A stretch of DNA of 64,000 nucleotides, taken from positions 320,001-384,000 of the forward strand of contig CAVYES010000005.1 in the NCBI GenBank assembly GCA_963767735.1, given 5' to 3'. The notes beneath the pieces were generated by a model. The model saw nothing but the letters and a program-made list of their open reading frames with translations. It ran no database searches and was not told where the DNA came from. The translations under genes and the position numbers were made by a program. Shown piece by piece: positions 35,660-63,578 of the stretch; the first letter of the stretch is position 1, and every line of letters begins with the position of its first letter. This DNA comes from Candidatus Bathyarchaeota archaeon. Its GTDB lineage: Archaea; Thermoproteota; Bathyarchaeia; Bathyarchaeales; Bathycorpusculaceae.

Positions 35660-35678
35660 TGGACGGGGGGATTTGAAC
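35660..35678 (-). repeat. Degenerate copy of the tRNA-Ala 3' end (att-like)
   Basis: tggac-ggggggatttgaac versus tggactgggggggatttgaac at 44335. Confidence 0.75.
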
Positions 35679-35686
35679 TCTCAGCA

Positions 35687-35792
35687 AAGTGGAGATGTCA
35701 CCCGCGATTTCCTTTTTTTTCTAAATTTTTGTTACTGAAAACCGTTTGAACTACGTTTGAGGGAACATACCCTAAGTGGTGGTGTCTCCCGC
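35687..35792 (+). repeat. Pair of 19-bp motifs AAGTGGnGrTGTCwCCCGC (35687-35705, 35774-35792)
   Basis: Same motif also at 40697, 40786, 57158, 58655; each followed by CC(C) and a T-tract. Confidence 0.85.
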
Positions 35793-35849
35793 ATAATCCC
35801 CTCTTTTTCTTTTTTATGTTCCCAATTTTCTCCGAAGTTTTTGTCTCTT

Positions 35850-37280
35850 CAGTAGATGGAAAAGTAGCTTAAGGGTTTGATATTAGTATTTTAGTGCAAA
35901 CAATTGAGATCTTGCGCTCAGACGATAAAGCGTAAATCAAAAGAACGAAAAGTTTCAAGCAAAGTCTTCAAGTTCACAGCCAACCTGCTCAACAACTACC
36001 TGCAGTTTCCAGCAGCCAAAAACAGCCTCTACACCAGCAGTCATATCAACCAATGTCTAATCCAACTCTCGCTCTCCCAAAGCTACGCTGAAGGCGGCTT
36101 ATTAGACCTCTCAGAAAAATGCGCTATGCCAAACAAGGTTCCCACGGGAAGAACCTTCAGAGGAAGAATAGAGCGTTTAGCTGAGAAGCAGATTCGAGAC
36201 TCACTTATAGAAGCAAACGATCAGGTTCTACTCATCCTACGATGCTATAGCATCTTCAGACGCAAAGCAGTGGTTGCAATTGATTATACCAGGCAACCGT
36301 TCTACGGAAACCCAGACGCTAAGAATGTGATAGGCGGCAAACAGGAGAGAGGAACAAATTGGGGCTACACGTATGCCAGCATGGATATTGTTGAAGCCGG
36401 AAGACGATTAGCAATCTACTCTATTACCGTAAACCAGTTCAGCGAGAAAGCACAGGTTGTAGAGAAACTACTCTTTGAAGCAAAGGCAAGAGGGGTACAC
36501 ATCAGTATAGTGCTGCTTGACCGCGCATTCTTCACAGTAGACGTCATTACTATGCTCAAGAGTTTAGGCGTCTATTTCATCATTCCAGCGGTTAAGAATG
36601 GCACAGTCAAAGAAGCAATGATGAACTATGACCAGAAGCAGCGAGCCAAACGTTTCACTTTGGGCAATAAAAGAAAAAGCGTCAGCTTCACTCTCTACAT
36701 CTATAAACGACCAGCAGGGCAGTTGCCGAAAAAGAAGAAGCTTACTGTTTGTGATCTCTATTTTGGTTTTGCAACGAATCTTCCAAGGTCTTTGGCTCTT
36801 GCGTTGCCGTCGTCTATTCCTTCTGAGTACAGGCGGAGGTGGGGTATTGAGACTGGTTATCGTGTGCAGGATAATGCTCAGGCTAAAACTACAAGCACCA
36901 ACTACAAGCTTAGGCTGCTCTACCAGATGGCTTCTGTGCTGCTCTACAATGTTTGGCATTACGCTAACTTTCTGCTCTGCAGGGCTTTGAAGAAGGCGTT
37001 TGATAGGCCAGTTTTGACGTTGACGCGGTTGGCTGTGCATTTTGAAGGCTTTGTTATTGGCGGGTTAGGGCCACCTCGACGGTAAGCATTCTCAGATGCA
37101 GTTCGAGGGACTCGATCGCGTAGATCAGACCCTAAACTCCGCCACTTTCTCAACTATTCAAGCCTTCAGGATATAAAACTGTTCAATGAAAAAGCTTGCT
37201 TAGAACGCTCCGATCGAGGAATTGTTATGATTACGATGTGAATGAAGCATCAGAATCATAAACTACTTTTCCATCTACTG
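35850..37280 (+). mobile_element. ISH3-family (IS4-like) insertion sequence, 1431 bp
   Basis: TIRs CAGTAGATGGAAAAGTAG / CTACTTTTCCATCTACTG; 5-bp TSD CTCTT (35845-49, 37281-85); empty site seen at 40856. Confidence 0.95.
35904..37085 (+). CDS. ISH3-family DDE transposase
   Basis: AIDYT, LLDRAF, YRRRWGIETGYR. Confidence 0.93.
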   Translation: MRSCAQTIKRKSKERKVSSKVFKFTANLLNNYLQFPAAKNSLYTSSHINQCLIQLSLSQSYAEGGLLDLSEKCAMPNKVPTGRTFRGRIERLAEKQIRDSLIEANDQVLLILRCYSIFRRKAVVAIDYTRQPFYGNPDAKNVIGGKQERGTNWGYTYASMDIVEAGRRLAIYSITVNQFSEKAQVVEKLLFEAKARGVHISIVLLDRAFFTVDVITMLKSLGVYFIIPAVKNGTVKEAMMNYDQKQRAKRFTLGNKRKSVSFTLYIYKRPAGQLPKKKKLTVCDLYFGFATNLPRSLALALPSSIPSEYRRRWGIETGYRVQDNAQAKTTSTNYKLRLLYQMASVLLYNVWHYANFLLCRALKKAFDRPVLTLTRLAVHFEGFVIGGLGPPRR

Positions 37281-37508
37281 CTCTTTGAGCTAAATTTATA
37301 TAAATTAGTTATTTATTATAAGATAGACTAATTTTTGTAATAAAATAAGCGAAAATGCCACTATTTACCCAAGTTTTATAAGGAAGTTGGCAAGATATGG
37401 GGCTTTCGGGTAAGAAACATGAATGCTATAAATGCTCTCGCCCAAAAAAGAGTTTTTTTATGTATTTATGCTTCTTGCTAAAAAAAATAAAATTGAAGGA
37501 AAAGAAAA
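37281..37508 (+). promoter_or_regulatory. Promoter/leader region nearly identical to 40856-41084
   Basis: Direct comparison; TATA-like TTTATAAG and CTATAAAT. Confidence 0.75.
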
Positions 37509-40430
37509 ATGCAAAATATAAAAGGTAAAACTTTGGCTATTTTGATTGCAGCAATTTTAACAATTTCCATAGGAGCTTCAACAGCATTAATGCCGAGCGC
37601 TAGTGCACATACACCTGCATGGCAAATTCCAACTTTCGCCTACATTTTTGCGGAACCTAACCCTATTGGCGTCGGTCAGACAATACAAGTTTACATGTGG
37701 CTTGACCCTGTTTATGGAGCGGCTGGCGGAACAGTTGCAACTGTTGGCACTAATGGTTACACCGCCAGTACAGCATTGCTAGCAAACGACTATAGATTCG
37801 ATAACTACAAGCTTACCATCACAGCGCCCAGCGGTGCAGTCTCAACAGAGACTTGGGCTGTAGTAACAGATCCAACCTCAGCACAGGAAACGTCATTTAC
37901 CCCCAGCGCCGCCGGCACGTACAATTTCACCTTTAGCTTTCCGGGACAGACCTACGGAGTAAATGGTGACGGTTTTGCAGGTTCACCTCTGATTAACGAT
38001 ACATATCTGCCAAGCAGTGCATCAACAACGCTTACTGTTCAGTCATCGCCGATTCCTGCGGCTGTAGGTAGTTCTCCGCTTCCAACTGTTTATTGGCAAA
38101 GCCCTGTTTACGGTGAGAACACTAACTGGTATTCGATTACGTCAAACTGGCTAGGTACAGGTTCACCGGTTCCAGCAGGGTATACTAGCGACACACTGTA
38201 CCATGGTGACAACCTAGGACCTCTGACTTCTCATATCATGTGGACAGGCCAACTTCAAGACGGAGGAGTTGTTGGAGGAAACTATTTTGCTAATGATCAG
38301 GGCGTCGGCTTCTTCGAGGGTTCTTCATACCAGCCAAGATTCGGCAATCCGATACTAATTGACGGATACCTATACTACACAGAACCAGCAGCATTCACAG
38401 GTTCCACAAGTGGACCAACAGTCTGCGTTAACCTGCAAACAGGGCAACAAATTTGGAGCAGCACTACCATACCTGCACTATCATTCGGTTACGAATATGA
38501 CCTATGGGACCCCGACCAGCACGGATCTTTTCCACCAATCTTAGTCGCAGCCAATTCAATTACAGGCAACTGGCAACTTTATGATGCATACACAGGAGAC
38601 GCATTGTTCAACGTAACTGGTGTTCCGTCAGGCTCGGCGACAATGGGTCCAAGCGGTGAAGTGTTGAGATATGTCTTTAACAACGCAGGCACAGTCGCAA
38701 ATCCACATTGGTATTTGGCTGAGTGGAACATGTCCAAACTATGGCAGTACGATATAATCCCATATACCGGCGCTGGAAGCACATCACCAGACCCTATAAA
38801 TGCAACAAACGGAGTTCTCATTCCAACGCTGCCTATTCCAATTCAAGGCGAGTATGGTACCGCTCCAAATGGAGCAAGTGTTCTTGTTCCCTACGGTTCG
38901 ACAATAACAGTCAACGCTAACATTCCTATTGACGACACTGCCCTTGCCCCTGGAACGACAACGCCTATCGGACAAATCAATGGTGATTCTTTAACTACTT
39001 ATGACTGGAACGTCTCGGTACCTTGGGTAAATACTATGCCTCCGCCATATTCCACTGTTGGCGTCACAGGACAATTAATACCTCCAGCTCCGGGAGCAAA
39101 TCCAGTAACGGTAGAGTTTGTTAATTATGGCGATGTCATGCTTTGCATAAATGGTTCCCTACCTACTGGTTTCGACAGGACCTATTCTGGCTATCCAGAG
39201 CTTCCATGGACAATGTTTACTGTCAACCTCAACGCATCTATGGGCGCAATCGGTTCGGTACTGTGGATGCAGACCTATAATCCGCCATTAGGCAACCTTA
39301 CTGTTCTGTGTGACGGAGCCGACTTCCAAACTCGTGTGTTTGTTTTGAGTTATGAGGAAACTATGCAATGGGTAGGATACAGTCTGACAACGGGTGCACT
39401 GCTATGGGGTCCAACTACTTCCTTACCTAACGACTTCAATTATTATAGTACATCATATACTTATGCAAGTAACCTGGCTTACGGCAACATCTACTTCATG
39501 GGGTATGCAGGAGTACTTTACTGCTTTAGCGATTTGACTGGAAAAATACAGTGGACCTACGGTAACGGTCCAATGGGGTCCGACAACAGTACTAACGCCG
39601 GCTTTAACACGCCTTACGGTGATTATCCAACCAACATAGAATCCGTTGCTGATGGAGTAGTATACATATCTACGGAAATGCACACTATCAGCGACCCGAT
39701 TTACAAGGGCTGTACAGCAGCCGCTATTAACGCTACCAACGGACAACTAATCTGGGGTCTTTCCGATTACTGCAGCGAGTGGACCGCCCCAGGCAGTTCT
39801 TGGGTTGTCGCAGATGGCTATGCAACATTCATGAACGGTTACAACAACCAAATCTACAGTGTCGGCAGAGGACCCAGCGCAACCACAATACAAGCACCAC
39901 AGACTACTGTCACAGCAGGGACCAACGTGGTAATCCAAGGTACAGTGATGGATAAGTCCGCTGGCACGCAGCAGAGCCAACAGTTAGCTGACTTTCCAAA
40001 CGGGGTTCCATGTGCATCAGATGCAAGCATGCAGGCTTGGATGGGCTACGTTTACCAGCAGCAACCAGAGCCAACCAACTTCACAGGCGTAACAGTAACA
40101 TTGACCGCTATTGATCCAAACGGCAACTTCGTAACTCTCGGCACAGCTACAACTGATTCAAGCGGCTTATACCACTACACTTGGACCCCTCCGAGTATTC
40201 CAGGAAACTACCTCGTCACAGCAACATTCGCTGGCACCAACGGCTATTGGGGATCAAGGGCTGAAACTGCCATGACAGTACAAGGAGCAACTTCTGCTAC
40301 TGCGGTGCCTACAGCTACTCCGGCTTCTGTCGCTAATGTGTACTTTGTTCCTGCAATCGCTGGCTTATTCGTTTTAATCATCATAGTCCTTGCCTTAGTG
40401 ATCTTAATGATGCTCAGGAAACGACCATAA
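37509..40430 (+). CDS. Large secreted surface protein with PQQ-like beta-propeller repeats, Ig-like C-terminal domain and TM anchor (paralog 1)
   Basis: Signal peptide, VNLQTGQQIWS / INATNGQLIW propeller repeats, DPNGN..ATFAGTNGYW, TM + RKRP. Confidence 0.85.
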   Translation: MQNIKGKTLAILIAAILTISIGASTALMPSASAHTPAWQIPTFAYIFAEPNPIGVGQTIQVYMWLDPVYGAAGGTVATVGTNGYTASTALLANDYRFDNYKLTITAPSGAVSTETWAVVTDPTSAQETSFTPSAAGTYNFTFSFPGQTYGVNGDGFAGSPLINDTYLPSSASTTLTVQSSPIPAAVGSSPLPTVYWQSPVYGENTNWYSITSNWLGTGSPVPAGYTSDTLYHGDNLGPLTSHIMWTGQLQDGGVVGGNYFANDQGVGFFEGSSYQPRFGNPILIDGYLYYTEPAAFTGSTSGPTVCVNLQTGQQIWSSTTIPALSFGYEYDLWDPDQHGSFPPILVAANSITGNWQLYDAYTGDALFNVTGVPSGSATMGPSGEVLRYVFNNAGTVANPHWYLAEWNMSKLWQYDIIPYTGAGSTSPDPINATNGVLIPTLPIPIQGEYGTAPNGASVLVPYGSTITVNANIPIDDTALAPGTTTPIGQINGDSLTTYDWNVSVPWVNTMPPPYSTVGVTGQLIPPAPGANPVTVEFVNYGDVMLCINGSLPTGFDRTYSGYPELPWTMFTVNLNASMGAIGSVLWMQTYNPPLGNLTVLCDGADFQTRVFVLSYEETMQWVGYSLTTGALLWGPTTSLPNDFNYYSTSYTYASNLAYGNIYFMGYAGVLYCFSDLTGKIQWTYGNGPMGSDNSTNAGFNTPYGDYPTNIESVADGVVYISTEMHTISDPIYKGCTAAAINATNGQLIWGLSDYCSEWTAPGSSWVVADGYATFMNGYNNQIYSVGRGPSATTIQAPQTTVTAGTNVVIQGTVMDKSAGTQQSQQLADFPNGVPCASDASMQAWMGYVYQQQPEPTNFTGVTVTLTAIDPNGNFVTLGTATTDSSGLYHYTWTPPSIPGNYLVTATFAGTNGYWGSRAETAMTVQGATSATAVPTATPASVANVYFVPAIAGLFVLIIIVLALVILMMLRKRP

Positions 40431-40494
40431 AAAGGATTAACAACCACAATCTCTCTTTCCCCTTTTTTTGTCTTAAAAGCACGTTGAAACATGA

Positions 40495-40600
40495 GGGCTG
40501 AGAAGGCTCTGGTTAATCACGATTTACGCTCTTGCTCAGTATCGTGGTGGCGCATTTGCATTTGCCTTCTTTTCTCCTTTAAAAGTTCCAGAGCCTCAAA
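40495..40600 (+). other. Conserved structured non-coding element (copy 1)
   Basis: AGGCTCTGG/CCAGAGCCT closing stem, ATCACGAT/ATCGTGGT hairpin; homologous to 44155-44255. Confidence 0.6.
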
Positions 40601-40667
40601 AACCCCCAATTTATCTGATGCCATCAATCACTAATTGTTTTTTTAAAAAAAAAGTTTGATCTTCAAA

Positions 40668-40693
40668 TGGACTGGGGGGGATTTGAACCCCCG
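40668..40693 (-). repeat. Perfect 26-bp copy of the tRNA-Ala 3' end (att-like)
   Basis: tggactgggggggatttgaacccccg identical to 44335-44360. Confidence 0.95.
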
Positions 40694-40696
40694 CCA

Positions 40697-40804
40697 AAGT
40701 GGAGATGTCACCCGCAAAACCCTCTTTTTTCTAAATTTTAGTTACTAAAAAATCATTTGATCTACTGTTCGGTGGAACATACCCTAAGTGGTGATGTCTC
40801 CCGC
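40697..40804 (+). repeat. Second pair of 19-bp motifs (40697-40715, 40786-40804)
   Basis: aagtggagatgtcacccgc and aagtggtgatgtctcccgc. Confidence 0.85.
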
Positions 40805-41084
40805 GCAATCCCTCTTTTTCTTTTTCATGTTCCCAATTTTCTCCGAAGTTTTTATCTCTTTGAGCTAAATTTACATAAATTAGCTATATTCATAAAAATG
40901 AACTAATTTTTGTAATAAAATAAGCGTAAATGCCACTATTCACCTAAGTTTTATAAGGAAGTTGGCAACATATGGGGCTTTCGGGTAAGAAACATGAATG
41001 CTATAAATGCTCTCGCCCAAAAAAGAGTTTTTTTTATGGATTTATGCTTCTTGCTAAAAAAAATAAAATTGAAGGAAAAGAAAA

Positions 41085-44081
41085 ATGCAAAAAATAAAAA
41101 GTAAAACTATGGCTATTCTTATTGCTTTATGCTTAACACTTTCAATGTCAGCTTCAATGATGCTTATACCAAACGCTAGTGCACATACACCTGCATGGCA
41201 GATTCCAACGTATGCCTACATTACTGGGATACCTAGCACTATAGGTGTCGGTCAGACAATAACTGTTTACATGTGGCTTGACCCTGTTTACGGAGCAGCT
41301 GGCGGAACAAGTGCCGTTATTTTAACGAATGGCTACACAGCCAGCACAGCATTGACAGCAAACAACTACAGATTCGATAACTACAAGCTTACCATCACAG
41401 CGCCAAACGGTGCAGTCTCAACCCAAACTTGGGCTGTTTGCTCAGACCCAACATCATCCGTGTTCACATCCTTCACTCCCACACAAGTCGGCACATACAA
41501 TCTAACCTTTAACTATCCAGGACAAGTCTATGGAGCAAATGGCAACGGCTACTCTGGTTCACCATTGGTTAACGATACTTACCTGGCAAGTAGCGCATCA
41601 ACAACACTTACTGTACAATCAACACCAATCGCCGCGCCCGTAACTAGCGAACCATTACCAACAAATTACTGGGCACGCCCAATATACGGTGAGAACACCA
41701 ACTGGTACACGATTTCGTCAAACTGGCTAGGCTCAGGTATGCCACAAATAGCAGGCTATACTAGCTCCTCAGTATACCACGGTGATGCAGTAGGATCTCT
41801 GACGGCTCATATCATGTGGACACTGCCGATTCAAGCGGGTGGAATTGTCGGAGGAAACGAGTACACTACTGCTACGGGAGTTGGCTACTTCGAGGGCTCT
41901 TGCTACATAGGAAGATTCTCCAATCCGATAATTGTAGACGGATACCTATACTTCAACGCACCATCATCATTCACGGGAGGCGCTGTTGGACCATTCGAGT
42001 GCGTTAATCTGCAAACAGGACAAATTGTTTGGTCTTCTAACGCTATACATTCGGTATCATTCGCTTACATCTATAACCTTTGGAATGGTGAACAGCACGG
42101 AGTTTTTCCGCCAATTCTGGTTTCAACTGCAGGAGGCGGTCTCACCGGTATGCCTTCGATGTGGACGCTTTGGGATGGATTCACAGGAGAGCAATTGTTC
42201 AACGTTACTAATGTTCCAGGATTTGCAGCACAAACAGGCCAAACCGTAGGAGGCCAGCCAGCCACGGCTCTCACAACCTCGACAGTAGCGGGCCCAAGCA
42301 GTGAAATATTAAAATATGTCTTTATGAACGACGGCACCGCCGCGAATCCTCAATGGTATTTGGCTCAGTGGAACTCGTCCGATCTATGGCAATACGATGT
42401 AAATCCATACACTTTCGGTGGAAGTCTGTCACCATCAATTGTTAATGCATCCAACGGGGTCCTTGTTTCATCTGCAGGCATTCCTCAAACAACTTTGGGC
42501 ACCACAGGTACCACGCCAACGGGAGGAAGCGTTTTCATCCCCTATGGTTCCACAATAACAGATAATGCATTCATCCCTCTTAACGCCACAACTATATACC
42601 CGGAGAACCTTGGTGCACGAACCACTTTTGACTGGAACGTTTCCGTACCATGGATTAACAACATGCCAATGCAGCCTACCTACCCCAGCCTCGGGGGGAC
42701 AGGGTCACCAATACCAACATTTATGCAAGGAACCGCTATCGGTGATTTCGCAGCAGGCGGAACATGTCCTGTAACGATAGTTGCAGCTAACTATGGCGAT
42801 GCTATGCTTTGCAGAAACGGTTCTCTACCAAGCGGTTTCACGACAACTATGGCTGGATACCCACAACTTCCCTACACCCTCTTCCTTGTCAACCTCAACG
42901 CAACTGTGGGTCCAATCGGTTCAATACTATGGATGAAGAACTATAACCCGCCAGCAGGAAACCTTACTGTCAGCATTCCCGCAGTCGACTGGCAGACACG
43001 TACCTTCCTCGAATATTATGACGAACTAGAGGAATTTACTGGATTCAGTCTGACTACAGGCGCACAGATATGGGGTCCAACTGCACCTATGGTTCCCCTG
43101 CAATACTATGATATTGGTTACGGCATTCTCGGTGCAGCGGCTTACGGCAACTACTACTGCGATAACATGGGAGGCGTATGCTACTGCTACAACGACTTGA
43201 CTGGAACTCTAGAGTGGACCTTCGGCAACGGTCCATCCGGCTCAGACAACAGCACTATGAGCTTGAGTTCTCCTTACGGTGAATATCCACAATACGTTGG
43301 ACCCATTTCTGGTAACGGAATAGTATACCTGATGTCCAATGAACACACAGTCACAGACCCGATTTACAAGGGCGCATTTTTAGCCGCTCTTAACGCCACT
43401 ACAGGACGAGAAATATGGACTCTTTCATGCTACGGCAGTATGGCTACCCCCGCACTCTCAGACGGCTATACAACATTCCTCAACGGTTACGACATGCAAA
43501 TCTACACTGTAGGCAGAGGACCCAGCGCAACCACAGTGCAAGCGCCACAGACCGCTATCACAGCAGGCAGCAACGTAGTAATACAGGGCACAGTGATGGA
43601 TACTTCCGCTGGCACACAACAATCAACGGTGAAAGCTGATTTTCCAAGTGGCGTTCCATGCGCATCTGATTCAAGCATGACTGACTGGATGGGCTACGTT
43701 TACCAGCAGCAAGCAGAACCAACTAACTTCACAGGTGTAACAGTAACATTGACAGCTATGGATCCCAACGGCAACTTCATCACCCTCGGCAGCGCTACAA
43801 CCGATGCAAAAGGCAACTTCATCTACTCATGGCAGGCTCCAAGCGTCCCAGGGAAATACACCGTCACCGCGACATTCGCTGGCACCAACGGTTACTGGGG
43901 TTCAAGCGCAGAAACCGGCATGACCGTACAAGCACCTTCGGCTACTTCGGCACCTACAGCTGCACCAGTATCGGGTCTAGCAACAATGTCAGGCCTAACT
44001 ATGGGAATCGCTGTTGTAATAATCGTTATGATAATTGCAATCGCCATAGTAGGCTTACTCCTGCTAAGAAAAAAGCCGTAA
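41085..44081 (+). CDS. Large secreted PQQ-like beta-propeller surface protein (paralog 2)
   Basis: Colinear with 37509-40430 (HTPAWQIPT, YMWLDPVYGAAGG, WMGYVYQQQ), TM + RKKP. Confidence 0.85.
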   Translation: MQKIKSKTMAILIALCLTLSMSASMMLIPNASAHTPAWQIPTYAYITGIPSTIGVGQTITVYMWLDPVYGAAGGTSAVILTNGYTASTALTANNYRFDNYKLTITAPNGAVSTQTWAVCSDPTSSVFTSFTPTQVGTYNLTFNYPGQVYGANGNGYSGSPLVNDTYLASSASTTLTVQSTPIAAPVTSEPLPTNYWARPIYGENTNWYTISSNWLGSGMPQIAGYTSSSVYHGDAVGSLTAHIMWTLPIQAGGIVGGNEYTTATGVGYFEGSCYIGRFSNPIIVDGYLYFNAPSSFTGGAVGPFECVNLQTGQIVWSSNAIHSVSFAYIYNLWNGEQHGVFPPILVSTAGGGLTGMPSMWTLWDGFTGEQLFNVTNVPGFAAQTGQTVGGQPATALTTSTVAGPSSEILKYVFMNDGTAANPQWYLAQWNSSDLWQYDVNPYTFGGSLSPSIVNASNGVLVSSAGIPQTTLGTTGTTPTGGSVFIPYGSTITDNAFIPLNATTIYPENLGARTTFDWNVSVPWINNMPMQPTYPSLGGTGSPIPTFMQGTAIGDFAAGGTCPVTIVAANYGDAMLCRNGSLPSGFTTTMAGYPQLPYTLFLVNLNATVGPIGSILWMKNYNPPAGNLTVSIPAVDWQTRTFLEYYDELEEFTGFSLTTGAQIWGPTAPMVPLQYYDIGYGILGAAAYGNYYCDNMGGVCYCYNDLTGTLEWTFGNGPSGSDNSTMSLSSPYGEYPQYVGPISGNGIVYLMSNEHTVTDPIYKGAFLAALNATTGREIWTLSCYGSMATPALSDGYTTFLNGYDMQIYTVGRGPSATTVQAPQTAITAGSNVVIQGTVMDTSAGTQQSTVKADFPSGVPCASDSSMTDWMGYVYQQQAEPTNFTGVTVTLTAMDPNGNFITLGSATTDAKGNFIYSWQAPSVPGKYTVTATFAGTNGYWGSSAETGMTVQAPSATSAPTAAPVSGLATMSGLTMGIAVVIIVMIIAIAIVGLLLLRKKP

Positions 44082-44154
44082 AAACATAACAATAAAACAA
44101 CCACAATCCCTCCTTCCCTTTTTTTAGTCTTTAGAAAGCAGCGAGAAAAGAAGT

Positions 44155-44255
44155 GGCTGAGAAAGCTCTGGTTAATCACGATTTACGTAATCGCTCAGTA
44201 TCGTGATAGGCATTGCATTTGCCTTCTTTTCTCCTTTAAAAGTTCGAGAGCTTCT
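44155..44255 (+). other. Conserved structured non-coding element (copy 2)
   Basis: AAGCTCT/AGAGCTT closing stem, ATCACGAT/ATCGTGAT hairpin, AGGCA/TGCCT hairpin. Confidence 0.6.
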
Positions 44256-44334
44256 GCAAACCCCAAATGCTTTGGAATGTCCGCTAATCTCTCAATTCTC
44301 TTTTTTTAGGAAAGGAGGCTTAATATTTTCAAAG

Positions 44335-44408
44335 TGGACTGGGGGGGATTTGAACCCCCGACCTCTTGAGTGCAAGTCAAGCGTTCATACCAGCTGAACT
44401 ACCAGCCC
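44335..44408 (-). tRNA. tRNA-Ala(UGC)
   Basis: GGGCTGG...CTTGA-CTTGCAC-TCAAG...GGGGGTTCAAATCCCCC CCAGTCCA cloverleaf; G3:U70 Ala identity pair. Confidence 0.97.
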
Positions 44409-44542
44409 TAGCTTTCCAATTGATTAACCGTTCAATGATATTTAGCTTTTGTTCGTGCAAAAGCAGGGCTAACGCAGAAAAATAATAAAAAACATAAAAA
44501 AAATAATTAATAAACTGGAGATTTATGGGTTACGCGGTTAGC

Positions 44543-63410: not shown

Positions 63411-63578
63411 GCCGGGGTAGCCTAGCCTGGCTAGGGCGCCAGACTCATAATCTGGTAAAAACACACAATCCAGATGAGAAATCTGGAGACTTAGGGGCTA
63501 AACGTCCAAAGCCAGAGGTCGCGGGCTCGAATCCCGCTCCAGAAACAGAATTAACGTCTGTTTCGGCGAACGGCACCA
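63411..63578 (+). tRNA. Elongator tRNA-Met(CAU) with three BHB introns (63450-63480, 63489-63517, 63541-63570) and encoded CCA
   Basis: Removing the three inserts gives GCCGGGG..CCAGA-CTCATAA-TCTGG-AGGTC-GCGGG-CTCGAAT-CCCGC-TCCCGGC-A-CCA. Confidence 0.88.

Follow-up and report, generated by a model that had tools for sequence, protein, structure and literature searches.

Introduction

In hok/sok fold-back inhibition and in the type I antitoxin RNAs, both of which occur as multi-copy loci, the translation start is covered by a 3' element of the same mRNA or by a small antisense RNA. In bacteria, pairing between the 5' and 3' untranslated regions (UTRs) of an mRNA, as in icaR of Staphylococcus aureus and hbs of Bacillus subtilis, and long-range sequences resembling an anti-Shine-Dalgarno (anti-SD) stretch are documented in the part of the source available to us (PMC12697547). 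The excerpts of two further sources that were drawn on describe the bacterial 3'UTR-derived small RNAs, regulators which are released from the 3' ends of mRNAs (PMC9438474, PMC9731577). Among archaea, sRNA162 of Methanosarcina mazei is presented, in the accessible text, as a trans-acting small RNA (sRNA) that targets the 5' regions of mRNAs (PMC3510493). Here we describe an element of about 105 nucleotides (nt) which is found twice in a 64,000-nt stretch of DNA (the window) from a Candidatus Bathyarchaeota archaeon (contig CAVYES010000005.1, positions 320,001 to 384,000), once behind each of two paralogous genes of a surface-protein family. Bathyarchaeia are abundant and largely uncultured, and our literature search on their non-coding and regulatory RNAs found nothing relevant.

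The feature of this element that had gone unnoted is that its inner loops read, by sequence comparison, as reverse-complementary to the ribosome-binding site (RBS), the AUG and the signal-peptide codons of the gene family, whose proteins have about 980 aa. Since the loops mirror the genes' own RBS and start codon, the element, which stands behind many such genes in a group of uncultured archaea from peat and soil, is most likely an antisense RNA acting on translation; to the full reading, a plus-strand antisense RNA (a read-through 3'UTR or a small RNA) which masks the translation start of the family, we assign a probability of about one half.

The element family and its distribution

The two surface-protein genes are arranged head to tail on the plus strand: paralog 1 (gene 1) lies at 37509..40430 of the window (973 aa) and paralog 2 (gene 2) at 41085..44081 (998 aa). 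Behind them, copy 1 of the element, consisting of a clamp (P1/P2), hairpins P3, P4 and P5, and a tail, lies at 40496..40608 (covariance-model match G000:C5:360496-360608, 79.3 bits), and copy 2 at 44155..44265 (G000:C5:364155-364265, 75.3 bits), both on the plus strand. In these and the following handles, G000 is the source genome, other G numbers are related genomes, g numbers are genera and C numbers are contigs. The sequence-only reading had placed a conserved block of about 100 nt behind each gene; both blocks are indeed present, are 87% identical over about 112 nt and are followed by a spacer that is far less similar than the blocks themselves. It had also suggested an Rfam scan, which found no family for the element: Rfam 15 gave no match to it at the gathering score across the whole window, and none at E up to 5 (seven loci) or at E up to 10 (window 40400-44450), where only tRNA or tRNA-fragment matches appeared. 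Judged from its sequence, the element is a new, large multi-copy family.

Concerning its distribution, the source genome holds three close copies besides the window pair (five close copies in all) plus at least four that are divergent or truncated, and a covariance model built on 53 copies finds 11. The same model finds the element in 49 of the 60 other genomes of the genus, with 0-28 matches each, and the matches of this search number over 440 altogether. With one copy as the BLAST query, 17 of the 24 other genomes of the genus that were covered gave matches, as did one of 16 genomes from other genera of the order. When 150 genomes were drawn from the rest of the class, ten had a match to the covariance model: these belong to three more genera of the same family (g18, 3/3; g21, 1/1; g22, 1/1), to one genus from a second family within the order (g16, 3/3) and to the same genus (g1, 1/5), and one weak match was found elsewhere at E 3e-4. 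A search of 24 genomes of the genus found the surface-protein family in every one (1-35 N-terminal matches per genome), and the five genomes from other genera in which the element occurs all have this family too. By a crude pattern, the C-run and T-tract of a gene 3' end stand just upstream of about 40 of 55 copies in the genus and of at least 23 of 43 in other genera; at about 15 of the 55 this context is missing. Also, two elements in the same orientation, about 40-150 nt apart, are seen at G188:C15 (L219), G207:C37 (L246), G106:C8 (L247) and G013:C3 (L047).

Fold and covariation

Nearly all copies start with GGCUGAG and end with CAGCAAACC(C). The clamp comprises P1 (GCUGA/UCAGC), a 3-nt bulge between P1 and P2 (mostly GAA, GUA or AAA), an 8-bp P2 and the tail AAACCC, ending CAGCAAACCC, and encloses up to three hairpins. 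P2 is formed by GGCUCUGG paired with CCAGAGCC; P3 is often CACGAU/AUCGUG with a loop such as AGCCAUAG; P4 is a variable stem around UUUGCAUU; P5 is CUUU(U)/AAAG around UCUCCU. In copy 1 (plus strand), the bulge GAA at the P1-P2 junction is at 40502-40504, the 5' strand of P2, GGCTCTGG, at 40505..40512 with its partner CCAGAGCC at 40588-40595, P3 (ATCACGAT ... ATCGTGGT) at 40516..40548 and P4 (GGCG/TGCC) at 40549..40566; the segment 40567..40585 holds UUCUUUUC (40567-40574) and then the P5 hairpin CUUUU/AAAAG with an anti-SD-like loop, CUCCUUU.

These hairpins agree with those listed from the letters of the window before: an 8-bp hairpin ATCACGAT/ATCGTGRT is P3, a GGC..GCC hairpin is P4, present as GGCG/TGCC (GGCA/TGCC), and a CTTTT/AAAAG hairpin is P5. 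The compensatory change claimed for the closing stem, AGGCTCT/AGAGCCT versus AAGCTCT/AGAGCTT, was confirmed as G-C to A-T at alignment columns 10/139. A pseudoknot had been proposed between a loop segment CTCAGT and the 5' GCTGAG; the complementarity exists as sequence, with the loop motif restricted to the five close copies of the source genome and a few relatives. In those five, the P3 loop (40526-40540 and 44185-44199 in the window) contains (C)GCUCAG, a duplicate of the 3' strand of P1, which could pair with the 5' GCUGAG as an alternative fold or pseudoknot.

Covariation was assessed on 100 distinct copies aligned to the covariance model, with 500 shuffles and slid controls. Standard pairs fill 87.0% of the cells versus 76.6% in shuffles, double-change cells number 260 versus 86.4, and the covariation score is 0.278 versus 0.135, with slid controls at 0.065 or less; none of the 500 shuffles reached the observed pairing, double-change or covariation value, and the claim of a base-paired element with compensatory changes is thereby borne out. 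Such changes are found in all eight P2 pairs and all six P3 pairs; in P3 (helix 4 of the alignment), double changes affect 6/6 pairs and 81% of the cells are paired. Copies from other genera have a longer and different P2, such as GGCUCCAGGCGG/CCGCCUGGAGCC or GAUUCAAACAC/GUGUUUGAGUC instead of GGCUCUGG/CCAGAGCC. The P4 stems also vary by compensation (AGCGCA/UGCGUU, AGAGCA/UGCUCU, AGAGAG/CUCUCU, GAGC/GCUC) around a conserved anti-AUG loop, and their letters show no homology to the gene; in 29 of 52 copies the anti-AUG motif is enclosed by a stem of 4 bp or more, against 21.0 +/- 2.7 in flank shuffles (maximum 29), a moderate result. Within the genus, the clamp shows three double changes only among 53 copies, and P1 and the tail hardly vary, which suggests that they are recognised in a sequence-specific manner. 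By folding energy, well-kept copies surpass their shuffles, with z -4.58 for copy C7:318342 and z -5.09 for copy C6:456145; window copy 2 does not, at z -1.20 and with 22 of 200 shuffles equally good. Copy 1 is eroded, with the last two P1 pairs lost (CAAAA instead of CAGC), and the clamp of copy 2 has U.U and G.G mismatches.

From the same block, the sequence-only reading had derived an unrecognised non-coding RNA or ribozyme-like RNA, or else a folded DNA signal analogous to attC. The part which stands is the unrecognised, conserved, base-paired element with compensatory changes and no Rfam family; the ribozyme and attC parts do not. A self-cleaving ribozyme, or an attC-like single-strand recombination site of an integron-like array, is very improbable, even though the stem has a conserved extrahelical bulge and a variable centre and lies beside tRNA-derived repeats. 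The inverted core sites of attC have the consensus RYYYAAC / GTTRRRY, and the ends of the element, GGCTGAG... and ...CTCAGCAAACC (GGCTGAG/CTCAGC), are not of this type. A bulge of 3 nt is conserved in the element, and its clamp sequence is nearly invariant, which is unlike attC. The Phage_integrase family has 16 matches in the genome, none of which falls in the window (C5:320001-384000) or beside other copies, the nearest on the contig being C5:138569 and C5:466208; also, the linked genes (the cassettes) have a promoter-like region and a leader of their own. No Rfam ribozyme model matches at E up to 5 or 10, and no catalytic core was seen. Readings of the clamp as a kink-turn, bulge-helix-bulge, hammerhead, C/D or H/ACA motif were rejected, as the motifs were not present by inspection and gave no Rfam match.

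Loops complementary to gene starts

Sixteen family genes of the source genome share a conserved start region, typically GAAGGAAAAGAAAAAUGCAAAAU, and the inner stretch UUUGCAUUUUUCUUUUC(U)CCUU of the element is the reverse complement of this region. The 19-mer AGGAAAAGAAAAATGCAAA is found at seven family gene starts in this genome and, perfectly antisense, within the element C3:58639. In copy 1, the P4 loop with its 3' edge, UUUGCAUUU (40555-40563), complements AAAUGCAAA around the starts 37509 and 41085, and UUCUUUUC (40567-40574) complements GAAAAGAA just upstream of the AUG. The two antisense halves, parted only by the 3-nt 3' strand of P4, together complement contiguous mRNA of gene 2 (41075-41091) and equally of gene 1 (37499-37515). 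The predicted targets, both on the plus strand, are accordingly placed at the translation start of gene 2, GAAAAGAA plus AAAUGCAAA (41075..41091, ATG 41085), and at that of gene 1 (37499..37515, ATG 37509). Copy 2 carries the antisense segments UUGCAUUU (44213-44220) and UUCUUUUC (44224-44231), which span 44213..44231 of the plus strand. The P3 loop AGCCAUAG complements codons 10-12 (ACU AUG GCU) in many family genes. Few of the inner columns are nearly invariant, and the anti-AUG letters belong to these. The stand-alone copy C6:456145 is perfectly complementary over 15 nt to some of the starts.

The complementarity follows the gene 5' ends of each genus. The antisense score of the elements is highest when the gene 5' ends come from their own genus. 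G000 elements reach 33 against the 5' ends of G000 genes and 21 against those of G040/G167; for G040 elements the values are 36 (G040 genes), 34 (G167 genes) and 22 (G106/G207 genes). The sense-strand control gives 13-27, and the gene-start sets are small, with 3 to 15 starts per genome. In the G040 element, ACCAAAGUGAUAGUAGCA is perfectly complementary over 18 nt to UGCUACUAUCACUUUGGU, which lies in signal-peptide codons of the genes of that genus, and UUUUUCAUUUUU stands opposite their AUGAAAAA starts. In RNAduplex, the best element-to-start duplex beats the mean of shuffled elements in 9/9 copies (C6:456145, -47.3 vs -22.4 +/- 2.3; window copy 1, -40.1 vs -27.7 +/- 2.7); the program permits many loops and the medians lie near the shuffles, and we count this as weak support. 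Taken as a sequence, the element resembles the gene 5' end, from the SD region into the signal peptide, copied in inverted orientation with internal deletions, rebuilt into hairpins which present the complementary pieces, and shut by the clamp.

An inverted copy of this kind could also act as DNA, with the element as a recombination partner of the gene 5' end and the clamp as a protein-binding or cruciform signal; candidate events are the inversion of the promoter segment of about 500 bp of the next gene, inversion of a whole gene, and gene conversion or cassette exchange. Element and gene starts do form inverted repeats of up to 19-20 bp, in tandem arrays the next gene starts about 500 bp downstream of the element, beyond its own promoter-like region, and the cassettes are bounded by tRNA 3' fragments. 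We nevertheless consider a DNA-level role distinctly unlikely. In most copies, both window ones included, hairpin-forming insertions split the repeat into pieces of 8-9 bp, and its sequence differs among genera. The inverted state, a long gene fused behind the element's ATG, was seen in 0 of the 74 copies read, the 3' half of the element stands upstream of the gene start in 0 of 16 gene starts of the source genome, and no recombinase gene adjoins any copy. Also, in duplex DNA one would not expect wobbles to be strand-biased.

A selfish or decaying repeat without function of its own is unlikely as well, be it a miniature inverted-repeat transposable element (MITE) or a fossil inverted 5' gene fragment that is copied along with the cassettes. 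Such a repeat would account for the terminal inverted repeats (clamp, 5 + 8 bp), the many copies and the truncated or eroded ones, and for the absence of the element from some gene-rich genomes. Presence and absence at a single locus, that of the stand-alone copy C6:456145, point the same way. The intergenic region around this copy is divergent, and an ATATATA box precedes the copy by 23 nt; G000, G055 and G043 have the element there, and five other genomes have an intergenic region of 27-152 nt only. At this one locus, though, the polymorphism concerns about 500 nt and not the element alone, and inspection for flanking direct repeats found no target-site duplications at stand-alone copies. 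A search of the source genome found no longer element with the same ends, the paired end motifs being always 80-95 nt apart; where a 5' end motif stands alone, in a few places downstream of family genes, it looks like a truncated copy. Both the clamp and the loops have been conserved across genera and two families, with compensatory change in the stems, and the loops track the local gene 5' ends.

Strand and transcription

The earlier claim that wobbles favour the plus strand holds for P2, with 39 G.U versus 13 A.C cells, and the ratios in P3 (66:17) and P4 (30:6) have the same direction. P1 is reversed (6:26), mostly owing to one position (24 unpaired cells) at which another G-C pair can form instead. 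Folding energy is lower on the plus strand than on the minus strand in 36 of 55 copies, with a mean difference of 2.07 kcal/mol. The A/T-rich boxes could serve either direction. As wobbles and folding energy speak for the plus strand and the T-tracts and A/T-rich boxes are neutral, the odds that the plus strand is the active one would be roughly three to one and no higher. A scanner for sigma-70 promoters and hairpins, which is unsuited to archaea, returned nothing useful.

If the minus strand were the active one, the element would be a structured RNA that mimics an mRNA 5' end (SD + AUG), and would serve as a decoy for a regulator or ribosomes or as a leader-like mini open reading frame (ORF). 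The minus strand reads AGGAGAAAAGAAAAAUGCAAA, in the same sense as the gene starts, and A/T-rich boxes and T-tracts flank the element on this strand too. Such an RNA seems improbable to us, because the stem G.U and A.C counts are about 3:1 for the plus strand, the folding energy is likewise against it, and no conserved small ORF follows the conserved ATG. Minus-strand coding was considered separately and rejected: the ORF at that ATG has 3-48 aa (median 14; 74 of 98 copies readable), its sequence is not conserved, and in G040 it reads MKK-stop. Plus-strand reading frames from the upstream ATGGAG were rejected also, being out of frame or stopped in several copies by inspection.

For RNA data we used contigs from four peat metatranscriptome runs of one study over window 37300-44500; these have no strand or ends. 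The contigs extend over both surface-protein genes, and some of their pieces match exactly. Many further pieces are 85-95% alike to the genes, which suggests many expressed paralogs or relatives; DNA carry-over is possible.

Proposed mechanism

The order of features 3' of each gene is a T7 tract, an A/T-rich box, the element of about 105 nt, a less conserved tail of about 35-45 nt and a second T7 tract. Behind gene 1, the first T7 tract and the putative box GTCTTAAAAG, about 20 nt ahead of the element, are read at 40463..40479; the equivalents at copy 2 are a T7 tract at 44119-44125 and the putative box TCTTTAGAAAG. The second T7 tracts, about 35 nt past copy 1 (40638..40644) and past copy 2 (44302-44308), are candidate ends of plus-strand transcripts. 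All four are on the plus strand.

As a plus-strand antisense RNA, the element would pair through its P5 loop with the SD region of the family mRNA, through its P4 loop with the AUG and its neighbours, and through its P3 loop with signal-peptide codons. This pairing would mask the RBS and the start codon, lowering translation and possibly mRNA stability. In a cis mode, read-through of the first U-tract would put the element in the 3'UTR, from where it could fold back on the 5' end of its own mRNA. Termination efficacy in archaea depends on the terminator U-tract and on the factor aCPSF1, according to the part of the source available (PMC8716108), and with such variable efficacy read-through isoforms are plausible. 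In a trans mode, a small RNA would be processed from the 3' tail or made from its own promoter; since the start regions are nearly identical, it could act on all paralogs.

Several observations weigh against such an antisense RNA. The element is not obligatory, as G002, G010 and G022 have 24-32 gene matches and one element each, and element and gene copy numbers correlate weakly (rho 0.26, p 0.20). Some copies, both window ones included, are eroded or truncated. The covariation alignment was fitted to the model and the copies are related, so that their independence is overstated. Mismatches between elements and the gene starts of the source genome lack a wobble bias (22 G.U-type vs 50 A.C-type); this test of element-mRNA pairing is confounded, because most of the elements come from other genomes and the starts from G000. 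Promoter and terminator signals speak for neither strand: of 98 copies, 52 are followed on the plus strand by at least five consecutive T within 70 nt, and 64 on the minus strand within 60 nt. The copies of genus g16 lack an A/T-rich box between the U-tract and the element. In the metatranscriptome contigs, the depth of the element bins is 0-0.45 (40433-40673) and 2-3 (44048-44288), values that, with neither strand nor ends to be read, carry no information on the element. Finally, a T7 tract separates each gene from its element, and a role in the 3'UTR therefore requires read-through.

A bolder form of the antisense mechanism, which we hold to be doubtful, is that each of the 13-35 surface-protein genes of the family is followed by an antisense RNA directed at the translation start which all of them share, and that the expressed gene, by read-through, or a few master copies silence the others. 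If true, this would amount to an RNA-based dosage limitation or to mutually exclusive expression of surface proteins in archaea, with a logic like that of antigenic or phase variation, and the invariant clamp would be a handle for an RNA-binding protein or a nuclease.

Neighbouring genes, tRNA fragments and leaders

Concerning the proteins, a Pfam search gave only weak matches to a PQQ-like beta-propeller (PQQ_2) and to Ig-like domains for paralogs 1 and 2, and an NCBIfam search of the surface-protein genes returned no name. Their hydrophobic C-terminal stretch is read as a putative membrane anchor.

At the place of the proposed att site, about 70 nt downstream of the block, a fragment of the 3' end of tRNA-Ala is indeed present. 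The intact tRNA-Ala(TGC) lies at 44334..44408 on the minus strand; a 26-nt fragment repeating its 3' end is found at 40668-40693, on the strand opposite to the genes, and a degraded one at 35660-35678. These three tRNA-Ala 3' ends, one of them within the intact gene, delimit two tandem cassettes of about 3.6 kb. A strict T-arm pattern, indicating pieces like a tRNA 3' end, is present 57-86 nt downstream of the element in 10 of 55 copies. Elsewhere in the window, at 63415-63540, a borderline Rfam tRNA match (29.1 bits, equal to the gathering score) spans 126 nt and is not called by ARAGORN; it may be an intron-containing tRNA.

Upstream of gene 1 there is an insertion sequence (IS) element (35850-37280), which encodes a DDE transposase (35904-37085); it shows 18-nt terminal inverted repeats (CAGTAGATGGAAAAGTAG) together with what appears to be a 5-bp duplication, CTCTT. 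Between the element and the promoter region of the next gene stand three occurrences (40620-40646, 40696-40731 and 40787-40822) of a roughly 30-nt motif, GATG(T/C)C.CC ... CCCTC ... T-tract, which is seen also at 35685-35720 and 35775-35813. The gene leaders, 40948-41084 and 37372-37508, are 92-96% identical and thus closer than the coding sequence. They contain a TTTTATAAGG box, a GC-closed hairpin (GGGGC...GCCC) and, well ahead of the start codon, a T8 tract (41028-41035), together a possible attenuator.

Comparison with known systems

A large RNA-like family with a covariation-backed fold and, in addition, a specific predicted target is rare for a find made from sequence. If the antisense mechanism is true, a regulator can arise from an inverted copy of the 5' end of its target, archaeal mRNA 3' ends can carry self-directed anti-start modules, and a large surface-protein family is controlled post-transcriptionally; the element would also be a compact model for a clamped, multi-loop antisense design. 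If it is wrong, the element is still an unusual repeat, whose co-evolution with gene 5' ends needs another explanation.

With the DNA elements it resembles, the element shares an imperfect inverted repeat and many copies and, in the case of the integron attC sites, a conserved bulge and a variable centre. It differs from attC in being without integrase or core sites, in its conserved sequence and in its target-complementary content; it differs from MITEs in this content too, and in that no target-site duplications or parent element were found. The hok/sok system and the type I antitoxin RNAs are alike by description only, as no toxin is involved here and the targets are large secreted or anchored proteins.

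In the icaR and hbs mRNAs, a downstream pyrimidine-rich, anti-SD-like stretch pairs with the RBS and lowers translation and stability, as far as the part of the source available describes (PMC12697547), and this is the trait shared with the cis action proposed here. The element is, in contrast, a discrete, clamped three-hairpin module of an archaeon, standing behind a U-tract and behind many paralogs and also alone, and its complement spans the AUG and signal-peptide codons besides the SD region. Regarding sRNA162, counted among the archaeal sRNAs that mask an RBS, the common ground in the accessible text (PMC3510493) is a small RNA of an archaeon for which pairing with the 5' part of target mRNAs is predicted. 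It is a single-copy gene, whereas the element has up to 28 copies per genome, follows its own predicted targets on their 3' side and seems to derive from the target 5' end in inverted form. The 3'UTR-derived sRNAs usually regulate other genes, whereas the predicted target of the element is the parent gene family, its processing being a proposal. In masking a start region as an antisense RNA, which to us has about an even chance of being its role, the element would fall within a known kind of regulator; what sets it apart within that kind is the combination of many copies, the place behind its own predicted targets, the apparent origin from the target 5' end and the invariant clamp.

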